Of a DNA stretch of 64,000 bases, positions 24,395 to 44,932 are shown piece by piece. The stretch lies in sequence record SRR22947727_398; one strand, written 5' to 3'. Position 1 is the stretch's first letter. Each line of letters opens with the position of its first letter. The notes under the pieces were generated by a model. The model ran no database searches. It was not told the DNA's origin and saw nothing but the letters and a program-made list of their open reading frames with translations. The position numbers and the translations under genes are program-made.

Positions 24395-26266
24395 ATGAGT
24401 TCAAATAATAGCAATATAAATGCAACATTAGAAAATGATGTTAATAAACGTGATAAAGCAAAAAATGTTAAACCATTAAGACAGCTTTGGCCATTTATTA
24501 TCAATTACCCAATTATAATTTTGAATTTTTTATTATTTTTAATTCTAGCTGCGGCTTTAAACCTAGGTATTACGGAGGCATTCCGTGTAATAGTGGATTG
24601 TGGATTTAATGAAGAAAAATTAATACCAAAAAGTTGTTCCCGTTACGCCATGGGCGATATTAATAATTTAGGTTCATACTTTAAATTTGGAATGATTATC
24701 GGCTTAGGTTTAGCCATATTTAGTGCATTAAGGTTTTACTTTATAAGTATATTAGGTCAAAGAGTTATAGCCGATATACGAAAAAGTATTTATGCAAAAT
24801 TAACTACTCTCTCTTCTGAATACTTTGAACGTGTACATACTGGAGAAGTATTATCCAGACTAACTACTGATACAACTTTAATTGAAACAGTAATTGGTTC
24901 ATCAATTTCATTTGCAATAAGGTCTATCGCCGTATCAATTGGAGCATTGATATGGATGTTTTTTATTAGCTGGAAGCTAACACTAATGGTAGCTGCAATT
25001 GGCCCTATTATAATAATTCCTGCACTTATAATAGGTCGAAAAATTCGTACTCTTTCGATCGAAAGTCAAGATAACTTAGCACAAGCCTCTGCAAGAGCAG
25101 GAGAAAGTATAAGTTCAATTCAAACAGTACAAGCATTTACACGTGAGAAAAAAGAAATATCTGATTTTAATAATTCAGTCGAAAGCACATTTAATGCGCA
25201 TAAGAAGAGAATATTTGTAAGAAGCTTTATGACCTTTATAATATTTGGACTTGGAATTATAAGCATTATAGGGGTTATGTGGTTTGGAGCTAATGTTGCA
25301 GTTAATTCAGAGCTAATAGATGGAAAGCCTAGTTTATCAGGCGGCCAGATAACTCAGTTTATTTTTCTAGCATTTATGGTAGTATCAAGTTCAGGTTTTT
25401 TAACAAGCACCTGGACGGAGCTTCTAAGAGCATCGGGAGCAACTCAAAGGATCATGGAACTTCTTAAAGAAGACCCAGTTATTAAAAGCCCTTTAAACCC
25501 AAAAGCCATTTCTGTTCTAAAGGGTAATATCGAATTTAATAATGTATCATTTAGCTATCCATCACGTTTAAATGATAAAGCTCTTGATGGTATAAATTTA
25601 TCAATAAAGTCTGGTGAAGTAGTTGCTTTTGTAGGGCCATCAGGTGCAGGTAAAACAACCATATTTAAGTTATTATTGAGGTTTTATGATATACAATCTG
25701 GAAGCATAACAATTGATGGAAACCCCATTAAGCTCTTGCGAACTAAAGATTTAAGAAAGCAATTTTCTATTGTGCAACAAGGTAGTCCATTATTTTCAGG
25801 CTCAGCAATGGACAATATAACCTACGGCCGTGAGGGCGCAAGTATTGAAGAAGCGTATAAAGCCAGCAAAATGGCATTTGCTGATGAATTTATTAAAAAA
25901 TTACCCAAAGGGTACAATACTGACCTTGGAGAAGCTGCTGAAACACTTTCTGGAGGACAAAAGCAAAGAATAGCAATAGCTCGTACAATTTTAAGAGATG
26001 CGCCAATACTTCTTCTAGACGAAGCTACAAGTTCTTTGGATTCAGACAGTGAAAAAGAAATTCAGAAAGCAATTGAGACAATGACGCAATCCAAAACGAC
26101 GCTAATAATAGCTCACCGCTTATCAACTGTACTCAAAGCCGACAAAATTGTGGTCTTGGATCATGGAAAAATTATTGAAATAGGTACACACAAAGACCTA
26201 TTGGAAAATAAAAGGTTATATTCTCGTTTATCAAAACATCAATTTAATGATTCAGAAATCCTGTAA
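24395..26266 (+). CDS. ABC exporter, fused TMD-ATPase (MsbA/ABCB-like)
   Basis: Multi-TM domain plus Walker A GPSGAGKT, LSGGQKQR and LLLDEATS. Confidence 0.92.
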   Translation: MSSNNSNINATLENDVNKRDKAKNVKPLRQLWPFIINYPIIILNFLLFLILAAALNLGITEAFRVIVDCGFNEEKLIPKSCSRYAMGDINNLGSYFKFGMIIGLGLAIFSALRFYFISILGQRVIADIRKSIYAKLTTLSSEYFERVHTGEVLSRLTTDTTLIETVIGSSISFAIRSIAVSIGALIWMFFISWKLTLMVAAIGPIIIIPALIIGRKIRTLSIESQDNLAQASARAGESISSIQTVQAFTREKKEISDFNNSVESTFNAHKKRIFVRSFMTFIIFGLGIISIIGVMWFGANVAVNSELIDGKPSLSGGQITQFIFLAFMVVSSSGFLTSTWTELLRASGATQRIMELLKEDPVIKSPLNPKAISVLKGNIEFNNVSFSYPSRLNDKALDGINLSIKSGEVVAFVGPSGAGKTTIFKLLLRFYDIQSGSITIDGNPIKLLRTKDLRKQFSIVQQGSPLFSGSAMDNITYGREGASIEEAYKASKMAFADEFIKKLPKGYNTDLGEAAETLSGGQKQRIAIARTILRDAPILLLDEATSSLDSDSEKEIQKAIETMTQSKTTLIIAHRLSTVLKADKIVVLDHGKIIEIGTHKDLLENKRLYSRLSKHQFNDSEIL

Positions 26267-38526: not shown

Positions 38527-38677
38527 ACTCAAAGGGTTTAATTTAAAGGTTAAAATAGAAAGAAACAAACAAGAAATTTAAGTAAATTAAAAGATTTAAT
38601 AAATTGCAGATATAAACTATTAAGATAAATCGTAGTAAATTTATAAATCAGATTATAGAAATAACCATATATCAAAA

Positions 38678-39133
38678 ATGACCATAATAAATTTAAATGA
38701 ACTTGCTTGTACAACTGGAGCTCTGATTGGAATAGATCCAGGTACTAAAACACTTGGTATTGCATCTAGCGATATAACTCGATTGATAGCAACACCTATA
38801 ACAACAATTAAAAGAACAAAATTTTCTCAAGATGCTGAAAAATTATTTACAATTTATGACAATTACAAAGCTTCAGCAATTGTTGTTGGCTTACCCATAA
38901 ATATGAACGGAACGTACGGACCTCGCACTCAATCTGTAAAGGACTTTTGCAATAATTTATTGAGTATTAGAGATTTGCCTATTTTTTTCTGGGATGAACG
39001 ACTATCCACAATAGCAGTCAAAAGAGGAATGATTGATGCAGACCTCACTAGAAAAAAACAAAAAAAGTATATTGATAAACTCGCAGCCTCCTACATATTG
39101 CAAGGAGTCTTGGACAGACTAAGAGCTAAATAA
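38678..39133 (+). CDS. ruvX: pre-16S rRNA nuclease YqgF / RuvX
   Basis: GIDPGTKTLGIA, VGLP, WDERLST, DKLAASYILQG. Confidence 0.93.
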   Translation: MTIINLNELACTTGALIGIDPGTKTLGIASSDITRLIATPITTIKRTKFSQDAEKLFTIYDNYKASAIVVGLPINMNGTYGPRTQSVKDFCNNLLSIRDLPIFFWDERLSTIAVKRGMIDADLTRKKQKKYIDKLAASYILQGVLDRLRAK

Positions 39134-39152
39134 ATATTTAAAAATTGAATAC

Positions 39153-39186
39153 TTGACATTGTACGAAATTTTCGTACATGCAGATA
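39153..39186 (+). promoter_or_regulatory. putative pyrB promoter with a perfect 19-bp palindromic operator
   Basis: TTGACA at 39153-39158; TGTACGAAA-T-TTTCGTACA at 39160-39178; TACATG at 39175-39180 as a candidate -10; ATG at 39187 with no SD. Confidence 0.72.
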
Positions 39187-40344
39187 ATGACTTATTCAAA
39201 AAATATTATAGATAACATATTCGGCGGAATTCGCCCGACCTCAAGAGCTTTAGGTAAAGCTGCGACAACAATACAAGGATGGTATGATAGTGGAACTATT
39301 CCACAAAAACACTGGACTGATATAATAAATGCAGCGAAATCTTTTGACCATACTTTAAACTCAGAAGACTTCTTCCCAAAGCAACTTTCGAGACTGGAAT
39401 CATTTGGCTATCCTTTTAATAAACTCCATTGTCTTTCCATTGATGATTTTAACAGACCCGACATTGAAACACTGTTATCGCTAGGCGCACATTATCTTGA
39501 TCTCAATATCCAAAAAAATACAAATAACAGAGTATTAAAGGGTAAAACATTAATTAATCTATTTTTTGAAAATTCCACAAGGACAGAAAAAAGTTTTGAA
39601 TTGGCAGGCAAACGACTTGGGGCGGATGTAATCTCAATGCAGATCGCTAATAGTTCTGTTAACAAAGGGGAAACCCTAATGGACACCGCAGTAACGCTAA
39701 ATGCAATGAATCCAGATATTATTATAGTTAGACATAGCGCATCAGGAGCCCCTGCATTACTATCGCAAAAAGTTAGTTGTTCAGTCATTAATGCTGGTGA
39801 TGGAATTCACGAACATCCTACGCAAGCACTCCTGGATGCACTAACAATAAAATCTGCGTTTAAAAAAATTTCTGGGTTAAGAGTAGCAATTTGCGGTGAC
39901 ATACTCCACTCACGGGTGGCGAGGTCAAATGTAAAATTACTTAACATGCTTGGTGCAGAAGTACGCTTAATTGGTCCTAAAACCTTATTGCCCTCTGAAG
40001 CTGAAACTTGGGGGGTAAATATTTTTAATAATATGAAGGATGGACTAGAAGACTGTGATATAATTATGATGCTGCGCCTTCAAATAGAGAGAATGTCTGA
40101 TGCATTAATACCTTCTAAGCGTGAGTACTTTCATTTCTACGGATTAGATAAAGAAAAAATTGCGTATACAAAAAGGCGAACATTAGTAATGCATCCGGGC
40201 CCTATGAACCGAGGAGTAGAAATTAGCTCTGAAATAGCAGATGATGAAAAAATTAGCTTGATAAAAAAGCAAGTTGAGACTGGGGTCGCCATGCGAATGG
40301 GAATATTACACGCTCTGTCTAATTCTCAGGACAGCATAAAATGA
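39187..40344 (+). CDS. pyrB: aspartate carbamoyltransferase catalytic subunit with fused N-terminal Cro-like HTH domain
   Basis: Intact ATCase motifs [35 protein letters not shown] and HPGP. They are preceded in frame by about 65 aa: [48 protein letters not shown]. Confidence 0.93.
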
Positions 40345-41615
40345 ATATCACTACCATAATTAATGCAAGAATTATTAACCCAGAAGATGGTTATGACAAA
40401 CTTGGTTCTATTCTCATTGAGTCAGGCTTAATATCAGATTTTGGACCTGATGTGCAAGCCAAAGGACAGATAATTGATGCTAATGGCCTTATATGTTCAC
40501 CAGGTCTTATTGATATGCGAGTAAATACTGGAGAGCCGGGTAAAGAAAACCGTGAAACTATATCAACAGCTGCCAAAGCGGCGGCAGCAGGTGGTATTAC
40601 CTCAATTGTTTTAATGCCTGAAACCAATCCTGCAATTGACGATATTTCATTAGTTGATTTTATAAATCGTAAATCAGAAAATGCACCTATTAACATCTAT
40701 GCGGCTGGAGCCCTTACCAAAAGTTTAGATGGGAGCACTTTAACAGAGATTGGGTTAATGTCAGAAGCTGGCGCAGTAATGTTTTCAAATGGAGCATTAC
40801 CTATTAAAAGCGCTCAAACAATGAGAAGACTATTGTCTTACTCTAGTAATTTTGATTGTTTAATATCTAATCGACCTATCGAGAGTTCATTAAGTATTAA
40901 CACAGCTGCTCATGAAAGTGATTTCTCACTACGCTTAGGACTTCCATCATCTCCTTCAGTTTCTGAGCGCATTATAGTAGAGCGCGATATAGCCCTTGCA
41001 GAGCTCACAGGTGGGAAATTATTGATAGATTTAATTTCAGCTTCAGAGTCATTAATTGCAATTAAACAAGCTAAACTCAAATATTCTAATATTTCATGTT
41101 CAGTTAGTATTAATCATTTAAGTTTAAATGAAAAAGATATTGGTGACTATCGAACATTCGCTAAATTAGACCCACCATTAAGAGAGGAGTCCGACCGACT
41201 AGATTTACTAAATGGTATTAATGATGGAACCATAGACGTAATAGTTTCATCTCACGATCCTCGTCCAGCAGGAGAAAAACGTTTACCTTACTCCCAAGCA
41301 GCTTCAGGTGCCATAGGGCTTGAAACACTTCTAGCAGCAGGTCTGTCATTAGTTGCAGACAAACAACTAAACTTGATGAATTTTCTTGCAACTTTAACTT
41401 GCAATCCTGCTTCCCTCTTAGGCCTAAAAAGTGGAAGAATAAAAAAGTCAGCACCTGCAGATCTTATAATATTTGATCCTAATGCCCCTTGGGTATGTAA
41501 AGGTAAGAGTTTACTATCGAAATCAAAAAACACACCTTTCGATGGAAGGTTAATGACTGGAAGAAATATAAAAACCATATGCAAAGGAAAGCTTGTATTT
41601 GACTCAAGTAATTAA
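40341..41615 (+). CDS. pyrC: dihydroorotase-like protein, probably inactive PyrC' (ATCase structural subunit)
   Basis: DHOase fold ([32 protein letters not shown]), but the metal ligands are substituted (DMRVN, SNRP, IDLIS, SSHDPR); ATAAAATGA junction overlaps the pyrB stop. Confidence 0.85.
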
Positions 41616-41633
41616 GAAATATACGAGCATAAA

Positions 41634-42212
41634 ATGCAAATTCTTATTACTATTTTAGTAGGCTACTTATTAGGATCAATCCCATTTGGCTTCATTATAG
41701 TTCACCTCAATGGAAAAGGTGATATACGTAAAATTGGGTCTGGAAATATAGGTGCAACTAACGTTCTAAGGACTGGCTATAAAAGTATTGCAATACTGAC
41801 TTTATTTTTAGATGGATCTAAAGCTGCAATAGCTTTTTTAATTTTTGATTATTTCTATGGTGGAAGTTTTGGATTAATAGCTGGTGGATCAGCATTAATT
41901 GGACATTGCTACCCAGTATGGCTAAAATTTAAAGGCGGAAAAGGTGTAGCTACTTTTTTTGGTTTCCTTCTAGCATCATGCTGGATAATTGGGATATTAA
42001 TGGCATTAGTTTGGTTAATAATTGCCTTAATATCAAGAATATCTTCTCTTTCTGCTATTATAGCAGCAATTTTAACACCACTGACCGCATTGTTTTTTAA
42101 TAACTCTAATCTCGCAATAGTATCTGGAATTTTAACTATTGTTATTATTATCCGACACATAGAGAACATTATTCGTATCGCTAATGGAACAGAAAGTAGG
42201 TTTGGAAAGTAA
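41634..42212 (+). CDS. plsY: glycerol-3-phosphate acyltransferase PlsY
   Basis: YLLGSIPFG, GSGNIGATNVLR, GHCYP, FKGGKGVAT, RHIENIIR. Confidence 0.96.
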   Translation: MQILITILVGYLLGSIPFGFIIVHLNGKGDIRKIGSGNIGATNVLRTGYKSIAILTLFLDGSKAAIAFLIFDYFYGGSFGLIAGGSALIGHCYPVWLKFKGGKGVATFFGFLLASCWIIGILMALVWLIIALISRISSLSAIIAAILTPLTALFFNNSNLAIVSGILTIVIIIRHIENIIRIANGTESRFGK

Positions 42213-42382
42213 GAAATCACAAAATTTGATTGCAACGAATTCGCATAAATTCAACAAACACTAAATTAAAACAATTAATTGAAATGGTTGACAATTTTAA
42301 AGTCATCGCCCAAACGCACAAATAAATGTATATTAAAGTACGTCCTAAAAATAATACGCTACACAAATAAGAGGTCACACTC

Positions 42383-44932
42383 ATGAATCTTGTCATTGTT
42401 GAGTCGCCCGCAAAAGCTAAAACTATAGAAAAATACTTAGGTAAAAATTATGAAGTTCTAGCAAGTTTTGGGCATATACGTGATCTGCCTAGTAAGAATG
42501 GATCGGTAGACCCTAACAATGAATTTAAAATGTCTTGGTCAATTGATACCCAGTCAAAAAAACGGGTAAAAGATATAGAAATTTCCCTCAAAAAGGCGAA
42601 CAAACTTATACTAGCTACTGACCCAGACAGAGAGGGAGAGGCAATTTCATGGCATTTACTAGATGTTTTATCCGGTAAAAAAAATCTGCTCAAAGGCAAA
42701 ACGATTGAGCGTGTTGTTTTTAATGCAATAACAAAAAAATCAGTTATTGAAGCTATTGCTAAACCACGGCAACTCGATATGGAACTTGTTGAAGCTTATC
42801 TAGCAAGAAGAGCTCTTGATTATCTTGTTGGGTTCACATTATCACCAATACTATGGCGGAAGCTACCAGGCGCCAGATCTGCAGGAAGAGTTCAATCCGT
42901 TGCTCTTCGTTTAATTTGTGAACGGGAAACCGAAATCGAAAAATTTGATCCAAAAGAGTATTGGTCTATTAATGCAATAATAGAAAACTCAAAAGGAAAC
43001 AATTTTCCAGCTAGACTTGTAGCTCTAGATGAAAAAAAATTAGAAAAATTTTCTTTAGTAAACAAAGAACAAGCCTTAAAAGCCAAAGATGCCTTGGCTT
43101 CTTCGAAACTAAGTGTTACTTCAATTGAAAGTAAACCTATAGCACGTAATCCTCAAGCTCCATTCATGACATCAACGCTTCAACAAGAAGCATCACGTAA
43201 ATTAGGATTTTCTGCAACTCAAACAATGCGAACCGCTCAAATGTTGTATGAAGGTGTCGATATAGGCGGAGAAACGACTGGCCTAATAACTTATATGCGT
43301 ACAGATGGAATATCGATGATTGGTGAAGCAATAAGCGATTGTAGAGCTAGTATAGAAGAAAATTTTGGAGAAAAATATCTACCTGGTCAACATAGAGTTT
43401 ATAAAACAAAAGCAAAAAATGCTCAAGAAGCTCACGAAGCTATACGCCCAACAAGTTTTTCAAGGACCCCCGAAAGCTTATCGCTTTCAGGGGATATGAA
43501 AAAACTATATGAGTTAATTTGGAAGCGCACCATGGCATCACAAATGTCGGCAGCAAAACTTGAGCGCACTACTATCCAAATGGAAGACAAAAAAAATTCT
43601 GTGGCATTAAGGTCAACAGGTCAAATAGTTAAATTTGATGGCTTTTTGAGACTTTATGAAGAAACAAAGCCGATGACCGCAGAAGAAACAGATAGTCAGT
43701 CAAATACTCTTTTACCTCCATTAGCAATAAATGATGAAGTAAAGGCTATTGATGTAAAAGCTGATCAGCATTTTACCCAGCCGCCTCCTCGATACTCAGA
43801 AGCGAGTATTGTGAAGAAAATGGAAGAATTAGGAATTGGTAGGCCATCAACCTATGCCTCCATTCTAAAAGTACTTCAAGATCGGGGATATGTCAGCCTA
43901 GATAATAGGCGTTTTACTCCAGTAGATAAAGGACGATTACTTTCAGCTTTTCTTGAAAACTTTTTTGGAAAATATGTTCAATATGACTATACTGCTAAAT
44001 TAGAAGAAAATCTTGATAAAGTATCTGCGGGAAATTTAAACTGGAAGATTTTACTAAGAGAATTTTGGAATGAATTCTCTAGTTCAGTTGATGAAACTAA
44101 AGACCTTAGGGTAACCAATGTATTAGATGCTTTAAATGATGCACTTCGTTCATCAGTATTTCCTAATAGGGAAGATGGAGTAGACCCACGAAAATGTAAT
44201 TCATGTGAAGATGGCAAACTCAGTCTCAAACTAGGAAAATTTGGAGCATTTGTCGGGTGCTCGAACTACCCTGAATGTAAATTCACAAGACCTTTCGGCG
44301 GCGAGGATATAAGTATTCCAACCGAAGACAAACTTTTGGGGCAACATCCAGATAATGGTGCTGATATTGTTTTAAAATCTGGTCGTTATGGACCTTATGT
44401 TGAAATGGAAACTGATAAAAAACCTAAACGTACAAGTTTACCTAAAAGTTGGCCCTACGATTTAATGGATTTAGATAAAGGTTTGCGCTTAATTAACTTA
44501 CCAAGAAAAATCGGAGAACACCCAGAAGATGGAAACCAGATTATTTCAGCTTTAGGGAGATTTGGACCCTATATTAAGCACAATAAAACCTACGTTAGTT
44601 TAAAAGATCCAGAAGATATGTTTAATTTAGGAATGAACAGAGCAGTTGAATTAATTGCTGACAAAATTGCCAATCCAGGTCGAAGAGCTAACAGTGCAAC
44701 TGTATTAAAAGACCTAGGTAAGCACCCCGAAAGTAATAAAGCAATTACAATTATGTCTGGACGCTATGGACCATATATCAAATATGAAAAAATAAATGCA
44801 ACCTTACCAAAAAACAAAAATCCAGAAGACATAACTTTAGAAACAGCTTTGGAATATATAAATGCTAAAATTTCGAAAAGTCCAAAAAAAAAACCAGCTA
44901 CAAAAAAGAAAAAAAGCAACCAAAAAAAATAA
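42383..44932 (+). CDS. topA: DNA topoisomerase I
   Basis: VIVESPAKAKTI, ATDPDREGE, SAGRVQS, ITYMRTD, Zn ribbon and C-terminal repeats (GRYGPY). Confidence 0.98.
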   Translation: MNLVIVESPAKAKTIEKYLGKNYEVLASFGHIRDLPSKNGSVDPNNEFKMSWSIDTQSKKRVKDIEISLKKANKLILATDPDREGEAISWHLLDVLSGKKNLLKGKTIERVVFNAITKKSVIEAIAKPRQLDMELVEAYLARRALDYLVGFTLSPILWRKLPGARSAGRVQSVALRLICERETEIEKFDPKEYWSINAIIENSKGNNFPARLVALDEKKLEKFSLVNKEQALKAKDALASSKLSVTSIESKPIARNPQAPFMTSTLQQEASRKLGFSATQTMRTAQMLYEGVDIGGETTGLITYMRTDGISMIGEAISDCRASIEENFGEKYLPGQHRVYKTKAKNAQEAHEAIRPTSFSRTPESLSLSGDMKKLYELIWKRTMASQMSAAKLERTTIQMEDKKNSVALRSTGQIVKFDGFLRLYEETKPMTAEETDSQSNTLLPPLAINDEVKAIDVKADQHFTQPPPRYSEASIVKKMEELGIGRPSTYASILKVLQDRGYVSLDNRRFTPVDKGRLLSAFLENFFGKYVQYDYTAKLEENLDKVSAGNLNWKILLREFWNEFSSSVDETKDLRVTNVLDALNDALRSSVFPNREDGVDPRKCNSCEDGKLSLKLGKFGAFVGCSNYPECKFTRPFGGEDISIPTEDKLLGQHPDNGADIVLKSGRYGPYVEMETDKKPKRTSLPKSWPYDLMDLDKGLRLINLPRKIGEHPEDGNQIISALGRFGPYIKHNKTYVSLKDPEDMFNLGMNRAVELIADKIANPGRRANSATVLKDLGKHPESNKAITIMSGRYGPYIKYEKINATLPKNKNPEDITLETALEYINAKISKSPKKKPATKKKKSNQKK

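Follow-up and report, generated by a model that had tools for sequence, protein, structure and literature searches.

Positions 39187 to 40344 of sequence record SRR22947727_398, a stretch of 64,000 nucleotides (nt) that was analysed as a whole and is called the window here, encode, in a marine bacterium, an aspartate carbamoyltransferase (aspartate transcarbamoylase, ATCase; PyrB) whose catalytic chain is preceded, in the same reading frame, by a small helix-turn-helix (HTH) domain resembling the Cro proteins of phages. The gene, termed HTH-pyrB, is the third element of the order ruvX, a gap at 39134-39186, HTH-pyrB, a dihydroorotase-like gene, plsY and topA. The gap in front of it holds a perfect inverted repeat, and the combination of head and repeat suggests that the enzyme probably represses its own gene. 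The elements concerned are as follows.

39153..39158, + strand: putative -35 hexamer TTGACA of the pyrB promoter, recognised by its conservation, the promoter role being predicted.
39160..39178, no strand: candidate operator, a conserved perfect 9+1+9 palindrome, TGTACGAAA-T-TTTCGTACA, with the core GTACGA-N5-TCGTAC.
39175..39180, + strand: putative weak -10 element TACATG, predicted from its 16-nt spacing to TTGACA, overlapping the right operator arm and followed 6 nt later by the ATG.
39187..39357, + strand: Cro-like HTH head (residues 1-57), NCBIfam carph-isopro, from NF046037, an AlphaFold2 model, fold matches in the PDB and the ratio of nonsynonymous to synonymous substitution rates (dN/dS).
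39358..39426, + strand: flexible linker (residues 58-80) of variable length and sequence, with a low predicted local distance difference test (pLDDT) score and a dN/dS of 0.21.
39427..40344, + strand: aspartate carbamoyltransferase catalytic domain (residues 81-385 and the stop codon), from NF002032, TIGR00670 and Pfam.

The frame 39178..40344 (+ strand) is a single entry in the list of open reading frames (ORFs), with the ATG at 39187 as its fourth codon. The start equivalent to 39187 is kept in 17 related loci, as ATG in 15 and GTG in two, while the ATG at 39178 is not kept, and in these loci a stop about ten codons 5' of the start closes the frame. Read from 39187, the protein has 385 residues, the frame containing no stop until codon 386, and consists of 80 extra residues, head and linker, in front of an intact PyrB: Pfam assigns residues 81-222 to OTCace_N (PF02729) and residues 230-376 to OTCace (PF00185), the NCBIfam PyrB equivalog NF002032 (399 bits, cut-off 263) and TIGR00670 (311 bits, cut-off 237) both match above threshold, and the catalytic motifs STRT and HPTQ are present in the translation. 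After codon 1 the next in-frame ATG, GTG or TTG is a TTG at codon 139, followed by an ATG at codon 151, both deep in the catalytic domain, and the catalytic part is therefore not translatable separately. An earlier, sequence-only reading of this DNA had described an intact ATCase with an in-frame N-terminal extension and without a separate start for the enzyme; the ORF list, Pfam and NF002032 confirm the former, and the position of the first internal start codon upholds the latter. PyrB is here one polypeptide, in which some 20 flexible residues link a Cro-type HTH head to a normal ATCase catalytic chain. With one ORF, no internal start and the catalytic motifs in place, it presents the covalent fusion of a predicted DNA-binding domain to an intact enzyme by which trigger enzymes may be recognised.

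The head belongs to the NCBIfam family NF046037, 'carph-isopro', which matches residues 11-57 with 55.3 bits when a 68-residue piece is searched and with 50.8 bits in the whole protein; the curated cut-off being 38, the domain name that the sequence-only reading had given is borne out. An AlphaFold2 model of the head (13 sequences) has a pLDDT of 89 and four helices, at residues 3-12, 15-22, 26-35 and 40-51. The full-length model has a pLDDT of 86, with both domains modelled confidently on their own and values under 50 at residues 65-69, which suits a linker acting as a flexible tether, with the head free to move relative to the enzyme. When the head was compared with the PDB by Foldseek, the eight best rows were all Cro proteins (Xfaso1 Cro, 3bd1, with a template-modelling (TM) score of 0.71; XPH1; N15 with and without DNA), the top matches 3bd1, 5w8y, 6on0 and 2hin having TM scores of 0.55-0.71, probabilities of 0.97-1.00 and E values of 0.03-0.5. 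A profile search of PDB sequences returned five matches at E <= 10, four of them Cro proteins. Against PHROGs there was a weak match only (E 0.013), and tblastn against phage genomes yielded three records with head homologues of 35-42% identity, annotated as Cro-like; those of Paracoccus phage Psul1 and Sinorhizobium phage phi2LM21 are 41-42% identical to the head and lie at the cro position, divergent to a CI-like repressor gene. The model, Foldseek, the PDB profile search and the phage homologues thus agree with the earlier expectation of a Cro-type fold in the N-terminal segment, and the head, as modelled, is a Cro-type all-helical HTH domain. Phage Cro proteins (P22 1rzs, N15 2hin/6on0, Xfaso1 3bd1 and the Cro-like proteins of Psul1 and phi2LM21) share their fold class with it and provide its best structural and sequence matches, although identity to the solved Cro proteins is only 16-25%. 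They are small HTH proteins acting on palindromic operators that overlap promoters, and the head is likewise accompanied by a palindrome on a promoter; in contrast to them, it forms the N-terminus of a chromosomal housekeeping enzyme, with neither a CI partner nor a surrounding prophage.

The fusion is widely kept among relatives, as the sequence-only reading had required, and is not an artefact of assembly. The nearest genome, G001, has 93% of the window's sampled words in common, and close proteins carry the source names Hellea and Litorimonas. Of the genus's 17 genomes, 16 have the carph-isopro domain above its cut-off, in open frames that are all about 395-431 residues long, the seventeenth, in which no fusion was found, being 88% complete; the fusion also occurs in G074 and G081, which represent two other genera of the same family, f1. 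Among the best 120 protein clusters listed, 37 are full-length fused proteins (383-423 residues, from several sources) and the other 83 are ordinary PyrB of 313-338 residues, covering 79-84% of the query, and when longer fusions were sought by shared words, nothing but PyrB fusions and fragments came up. The junction is also spanned, without insertions or deletions, by contigs from four metatranscriptome runs, all of one study, possibly the one from which the window itself comes. Over 18 fused genes the proportion of differing sites is 0.76 at synonymous positions (pS, saturated) and, at nonsynonymous positions (pN), 0.14 in the head, 0.28 in the linker and 0.105 in the enzyme; the corresponding median dN/dS, read with that saturation, is 0.074, 0.21 and 0.035. 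Linker length differs among relatives without ever breaking the frame, and the proteins have 385-397 residues. The fusion is real, conserved and under purifying selection.

The region 39140-39200, which the sequence-only reading had named beforehand for an electrophoretic mobility shift assay, contains a perfect, conserved and genome-unique palindrome that is tied to the fusion. Its arms are 100% complementary, its GTACGA half-sites lie 11 bp apart from centre to centre, and it occupies the space between TTGACA and the start codon. The window holds one exact match, the number expected by chance with up to three mismatches being 0.16; the sole other match, at 25034-25050 (GGTCGAAAAATTCGTAC), has three mismatches and is probably due to chance. 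Over the 18 fused loci a 26-nt block anchored on TTGAC shows 93% identity, compared with 43% for the 45 nt upstream of it; TTGAC is invariant in all 18, 33-35 nt 5' of the start, and the operator arms are invariant or nearly so, variation being confined to the centre. In five genomes of the genus, GTACGA-NN-TTTTCGTAC has a single exact match apiece, which in every case lies at pyrB. When a wider regulon was sought in these five genomes, matches with at most two mismatches were no commoner than those of a reversed control pattern, and two near-matches in G003, considered as further sites, lie inside cas2 and cas9 and are taken as chance. Locus L122 of that genome (G003:C1:800300-804800) comprises a CRISPR array together with cas2, cas1 and a gene for a Cas9-like protein of over 640 residues, its frame extending past the end of the locus.

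The presence of the palindrome follows that of the head. Six of 30 pyrB loci from family f1 have the carph-isopro head, namely four from the genus together with G074 and G081, and GTACG-N7-CGTAC is found at five of these six, G081 having one mismatch, and at none of the 24 others. The candidate operator is conserved, unique and inherited together with the head. A role for the palindrome as the terminator of ruvX was considered and rejected: the loop would be 1 nt long, there is no T-run, the terminator scan reports none, and in G081 the site accompanies pyrB despite different upstream DNA.

Fused and unfused genes also differ in what precedes the start codon. A Shine-Dalgarno (SD)-like 4-mer at -18..-4 is present in none of the 18 fused genes but in every one of 16 unfused pyrB genes checked in the family, where the SD stands behind a leader of about 30 nt (16/16); from this comparison the SD-bearing leader is judged to be replaced in the fused genes. 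TTGACTC is likewise found upstream of unfused pyrB genes of the family. At the unfused loci L035-L054 it is accompanied by a CTAAA/GTAAA-like -10 element and, some 20 nt 5' of the ATG, by conserved A-rich sequence (AAAAT/AAATC), possibly a regulatory leader element lost from the fused genes. Because the TTGAC spacing is conserved and an SD is missing, the promoter of the fused genes is read as leaderless or nearly so: we infer the arrangement TTGACA, 16-nt spacer, TACATG, 6 nt, ATG, with an mRNA that would begin at or close to the start codon.

The same head and operator recur on a second enzyme. A carph-isopro head, 35% identical to that of PyrB, is fused to RibBA in family f2, in seven of seven genomes of one genus and in one genome of another. 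GTACG-N7-CGTAC stands 8-14 nt before the start at seven of these eight loci, six of the seven having the full core GTACGA-N5-TCGTAC and L116 having one mismatch in the right 6-mer. Since the operator is found at both RibBA and PyrB fusions, head and operator stay together across two enzymes and two families. This suggests that promoter, operator and head constitute a portable unit of phage-Cro ancestry, which would also drive RibBA in f2. A free-standing carph-isopro gene of 75-90 codons in G530 (L120), with GTACGAAATCAACGTGC and two CGTACA repeats upstream, is a possible free-standing version of the head-operator pair.

The domain nonetheless has other homes, surveyed in a sample of 401 alphaproteobacterial genomes (one genome with the domain, G138, is unpublished and enters no other claim). 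It exceeds the cut-off in 79 of the 401, mostly in ORFs of 450-800 residues, and a Pfam scan of 20 long matches from the protein library identified Mitofilin (PF09731) in ten and HemD in two. The best-scoring and commonest home is the N-terminus of Mic60/mitofilin-like membrane proteins of alphaproteobacteria. Examples are P0158, P0190, P0193, P0195, P0200, P0202, P0203, P0221, P0228, P0234 and P0235, with loci L061-L090; some proteins of this type are also fused to HemD, the head then being internal. The PyrB head lies above the cut-off of NF046037, whereas the best members of that family are Mic60/mitofilin-like heads lacking such an operator. Two of the 28 Mic60-like loci evaluated have partial resemblances, one a single half-site and the other an unrelated GTACG-N9-CGTAC. 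The idea that the recognition helix alone dictates the operator was dropped, as Mic60-type members have the TVQGW helix and no site. In the literature searched, no paper was found that joins Mic60, alphaproteobacteria and the helix-turn-helix.

HTH-PyrB fusions of other kinds, for which the sequence-only reading had recommended a search across Alphaproteobacteria, were found in two further types. G097 (L055), of the same family f1, bears on PyrB a YdaS/Cro-type head (PF15943, 67 bits) unrelated to the carph-isopro head, together with an inverted repeat of its own, ACAAG-N4-CTTGT, in the promoter spacer and with the spacing to the ATG seen in the carph-isopro fusions. This fusion is missing in two genomes of the genus of G097, and its catalytic domain is sister to an unfused gene (support 96/95). 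Twenty weaker or shorter carph-isopro matches fetched from the 401-genome sample comprised five HTH-ArgB fusions (L091-L095; TIGR00761 above cut-off in two of two tested), two HTH-PyrB fusions of a third type in f133 (L096, L102), five HTH-HisZ-like (L099-L104) and four HTH-TorD-like fusions (L105, L107-L109), and four that were other or unannotated. A distinct palindrome, in some cases in two copies, accompanies each fusion group, at the promoter or immediately 5' of it, for example TAATATACT-N5-AGTATATTA for ArgB, AAATTGCG-N5-CGCAATTT for the f133 PyrB and, for HisZ, TATTCATAT-T-ATATGAATA, 5' of which stands another, related repeat. Sequence comparison indicates that HTH-PyrB fusions arose independently several times.

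Downstream, HTH-pyrB overlaps a gene that bears on how the enzyme may be assembled and inhibited.

40341..41615, + strand: dihydroorotase-like gene overlapping the pyrB stop (ATGA), its best NCBIfam matches being dihydroorotase models.

Its product has no HxH metal motif, the sequence DMRVNTG standing in that place, and contains three histidines in all. Relatives stand in for the window's own genome in the searches for PyrI, PyrR and pyrC; a separate E. coli-type pyrC exceeds the TIGR00856 cut-off in three of three. PyrI is found in none of five relatives, PyrR reaches its cut-off in none of five, and a terminator scan of 38600-42500 gives no terminator-like site or attenuator, so that PyrI, PyrR and attenuation, which the sequence-only reading had not seen at this locus, were not found in these searches either. 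The class A ATCase of Pseudomonas consists of PyrB and an inactive PyrC' in a dodecameric, nucleotide-inhibited PyrB6-PyrC'6 complex. Lack of HxH, a separate pyrC and the absence of PyrI fit an enzyme of this class with an inactive PyrC', and the dihydroorotase-like gene is probably that partner. The likeness extends to the overlap of pyrB with a dihydroorotase-like gene without HxH, to pyrC being elsewhere and to the lack of a PyrI match; the 80 residues of head and linker, by contrast, are present only here. Known modes of pyrimidine control include RNA binding by PyrR, attenuation at pyrBI and, at carAB of E. coli, repression in which the enzymes PepA and PyrH take part. Feedback on pyrimidine genes is common to these systems and to the one proposed here, in which, unlike in the others, the predicted regulator is the target enzyme itself, acting through a fused domain. 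We know of no account of pyrimidine gene control in most alphaproteobacteria.

Since a phage-Cro-type head is joined to an enzyme whose gene bears a conserved palindrome on its own promoter, the enzyme probably shuts off its own gene, and a probability of roughly 0.65 is given to the reading that HTH-PyrB is an autorepressing enzyme exerting negative autoregulation on pyrB-pyrC'. In this scheme two heads of oligomeric PyrB would bind both GTACGA half-sites of the palindrome, which spans the -35/-10 spacer and the -10 element of pyrB's own, probably leaderless, promoter. Binding would exclude RNA polymerase from the promoter, and the ensuing autoregulation would limit the level of the pyrB-pyrC' operon. 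CTP, UTP, ATP or substrates might modulate binding through the conformation of the enzyme or its assembly with PyrC'. DNA binding, repression and the leaderless start are all predictions from sequence.

Several points weigh against autorepression or against parts of it. ATCase catalytic chains form trimers, the symmetry of which does not match a two-fold operator. TTGACA-16-TACATG is missed by a consensus sigma-70 scan, its -10 being poor, so that promoter and leaderless start are read from conservation, and the assembled RNA contigs bridge the ruvX-pyrB gap and show no transcript start; as they are unable to show one, the leaderless start stays a prediction. Common descent alone could link operator and fusion within family f1. 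In a tree the genus's 16 fused genes group together with support (97/92); the G074 and G081 genes are placed outside this clade, but not strongly supported there, and the fused pyrB genes may have one origin or several. L004, the first RibBA fusion found and the eighth of those loci, has only the left half-site, and GTACGA-N5-TCGTAC occurs within 200 nt upstream at none of the 28 Mic60-like loci, so that DNA binding of this kind is not a given for every carph-isopro domain. The likeness to solved Cro structures is weak throughout, Foldseek giving no match against the PDB at E <= 0.001 and the best PDB sequence match, P22 Cro, having an E value of only 0.036. Residues 1-68, which include the head, match no Pfam family at E <= 1, including PF14549 and PF15943; relatives of the head in the protein library do match the P22_Cro or YdaS models.

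The head might instead be a protein-protein or localisation module that does not bind DNA, with the palindrome serving another factor or being only a part of the promoter. An HTH can be employed in this manner, RodZ holding MreB through an XRE-type HTH, and the main branch of the carph-isopro family, with its long ORFs, its Mitofilin and HemD partners and its operator-free upstream regions, is on Mic60-like membrane proteins. This account is nevertheless unlikely, given that the operator moves with the head onto RibBA in another family, is unique in each genome and is missing at pyrB genes without the head, that other HTH-enzyme fusions each have a palindrome of their own at the same place, and that phage relatives occupy the cro position. 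Were the head cleaved or otherwise released after translation, the gene would produce a free Cro-like repressor and an ordinary PyrB, and fusion would only ensure equal amounts of the two. The flexible and variable linker and the preponderance of free-standing proteins among the library relatives would accommodate such processing, which is however quite improbable, no conserved cleavage motif being visible in the linker and the frame having been kept through many changes of linker length.

It is also conceivable that a phage-derived cro gene was inserted, promoter included, in front of pyrB and that its stop codon was lost, the promoter now being constitutive and the head without any regulatory role. 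The phage Cro relatives of the head and the replacement of the ancestral SD-bearing leader are compatible with such an origin. A passenger would however hardly show a dN/dS near that of the enzyme, even allowing for saturated synonymous sites, nor would a constitutive promoter need a spacer palindrome conserved this far, and together with the several independent fusions this renders the explanation very improbable. A head that binds the site could, finally, activate the promoter, for which the poor -10 element leaves room, or serve further genes as a wider pyrimidine regulator. The position of the site inside the core promoter is the classic one of a repressor, and no second good site was found in the five genomes, the near-matches in G003 being inside cas genes, so that there is little to recommend either variant.

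Enzymes that double as repressors are represented, in PMC5397151, by BirA, NadR, PutA and the archaeal RbkR, the last of which was found through comparative genomics of fusions and operators. As described there, these proteins unite an active metabolic enzyme with a DNA-binding domain directed at genes of their own pathway, and HTH-PyrB is predicted to do likewise. Compared with what that source says of them, HTH-PyrB differs in that the enzyme is an ATCase, in that the fold is a phage Cro-type all-helical HTH and no winged helix or ribbon-helix-helix, and in that the predicted regulon is one operator at its own leaderless promoter; it further differs in belonging to a unit common to RibBA and in being known from computation.

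No paper was found on an HTH-ATCase or using the name 'carph-isopro', in a search that covered few subscription journals. ATCase is the classic model of allosteric feedback; should the proposal hold, an ATCase that binds its own operator would be close to the simplest possible device for transcriptional feedback, and an enzyme of nucleotide biosynthesis would join the short list formed by BirA, NadR, PutA and RbkR. The unit shared with RibBA and the independent PyrB, ArgB and HisZ-like fusions point to a general mode of wiring control into pathways, while the sharing between RibBA and PyrB suggests a natural, transplantable promoter-operator-repressor part. A single protein, the 19-bp site and a few effectors would suffice to test the proposal directly. 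A more far-reaching and distinctly speculative possibility, which we hold to be doubtful as it stands, is that alphaproteobacteria repeatedly turn biosynthetic enzymes that sense pathway end products, namely PyrB, ArgB, the HisZ regulatory subunit and RibBA, into one-component feedback repressors by setting before them a portable, phage-derived cassette of promoter, operator and Cro head; in PyrB, the conformation or assembly set by nucleotides would then decide whether heads pair on the operator, allostery being read out as transcription.

The free-standing relatives of the head have a feature of their own. A search of the protein library returned 1681 matches, most of them to free-standing proteins of 60-120 residues, and many of the free-standing proteins among P0129-P0272 end in Ala-Ala or a similar sequence. 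Such ends recall the C-terminal protease tags of Caulobacter regulators.

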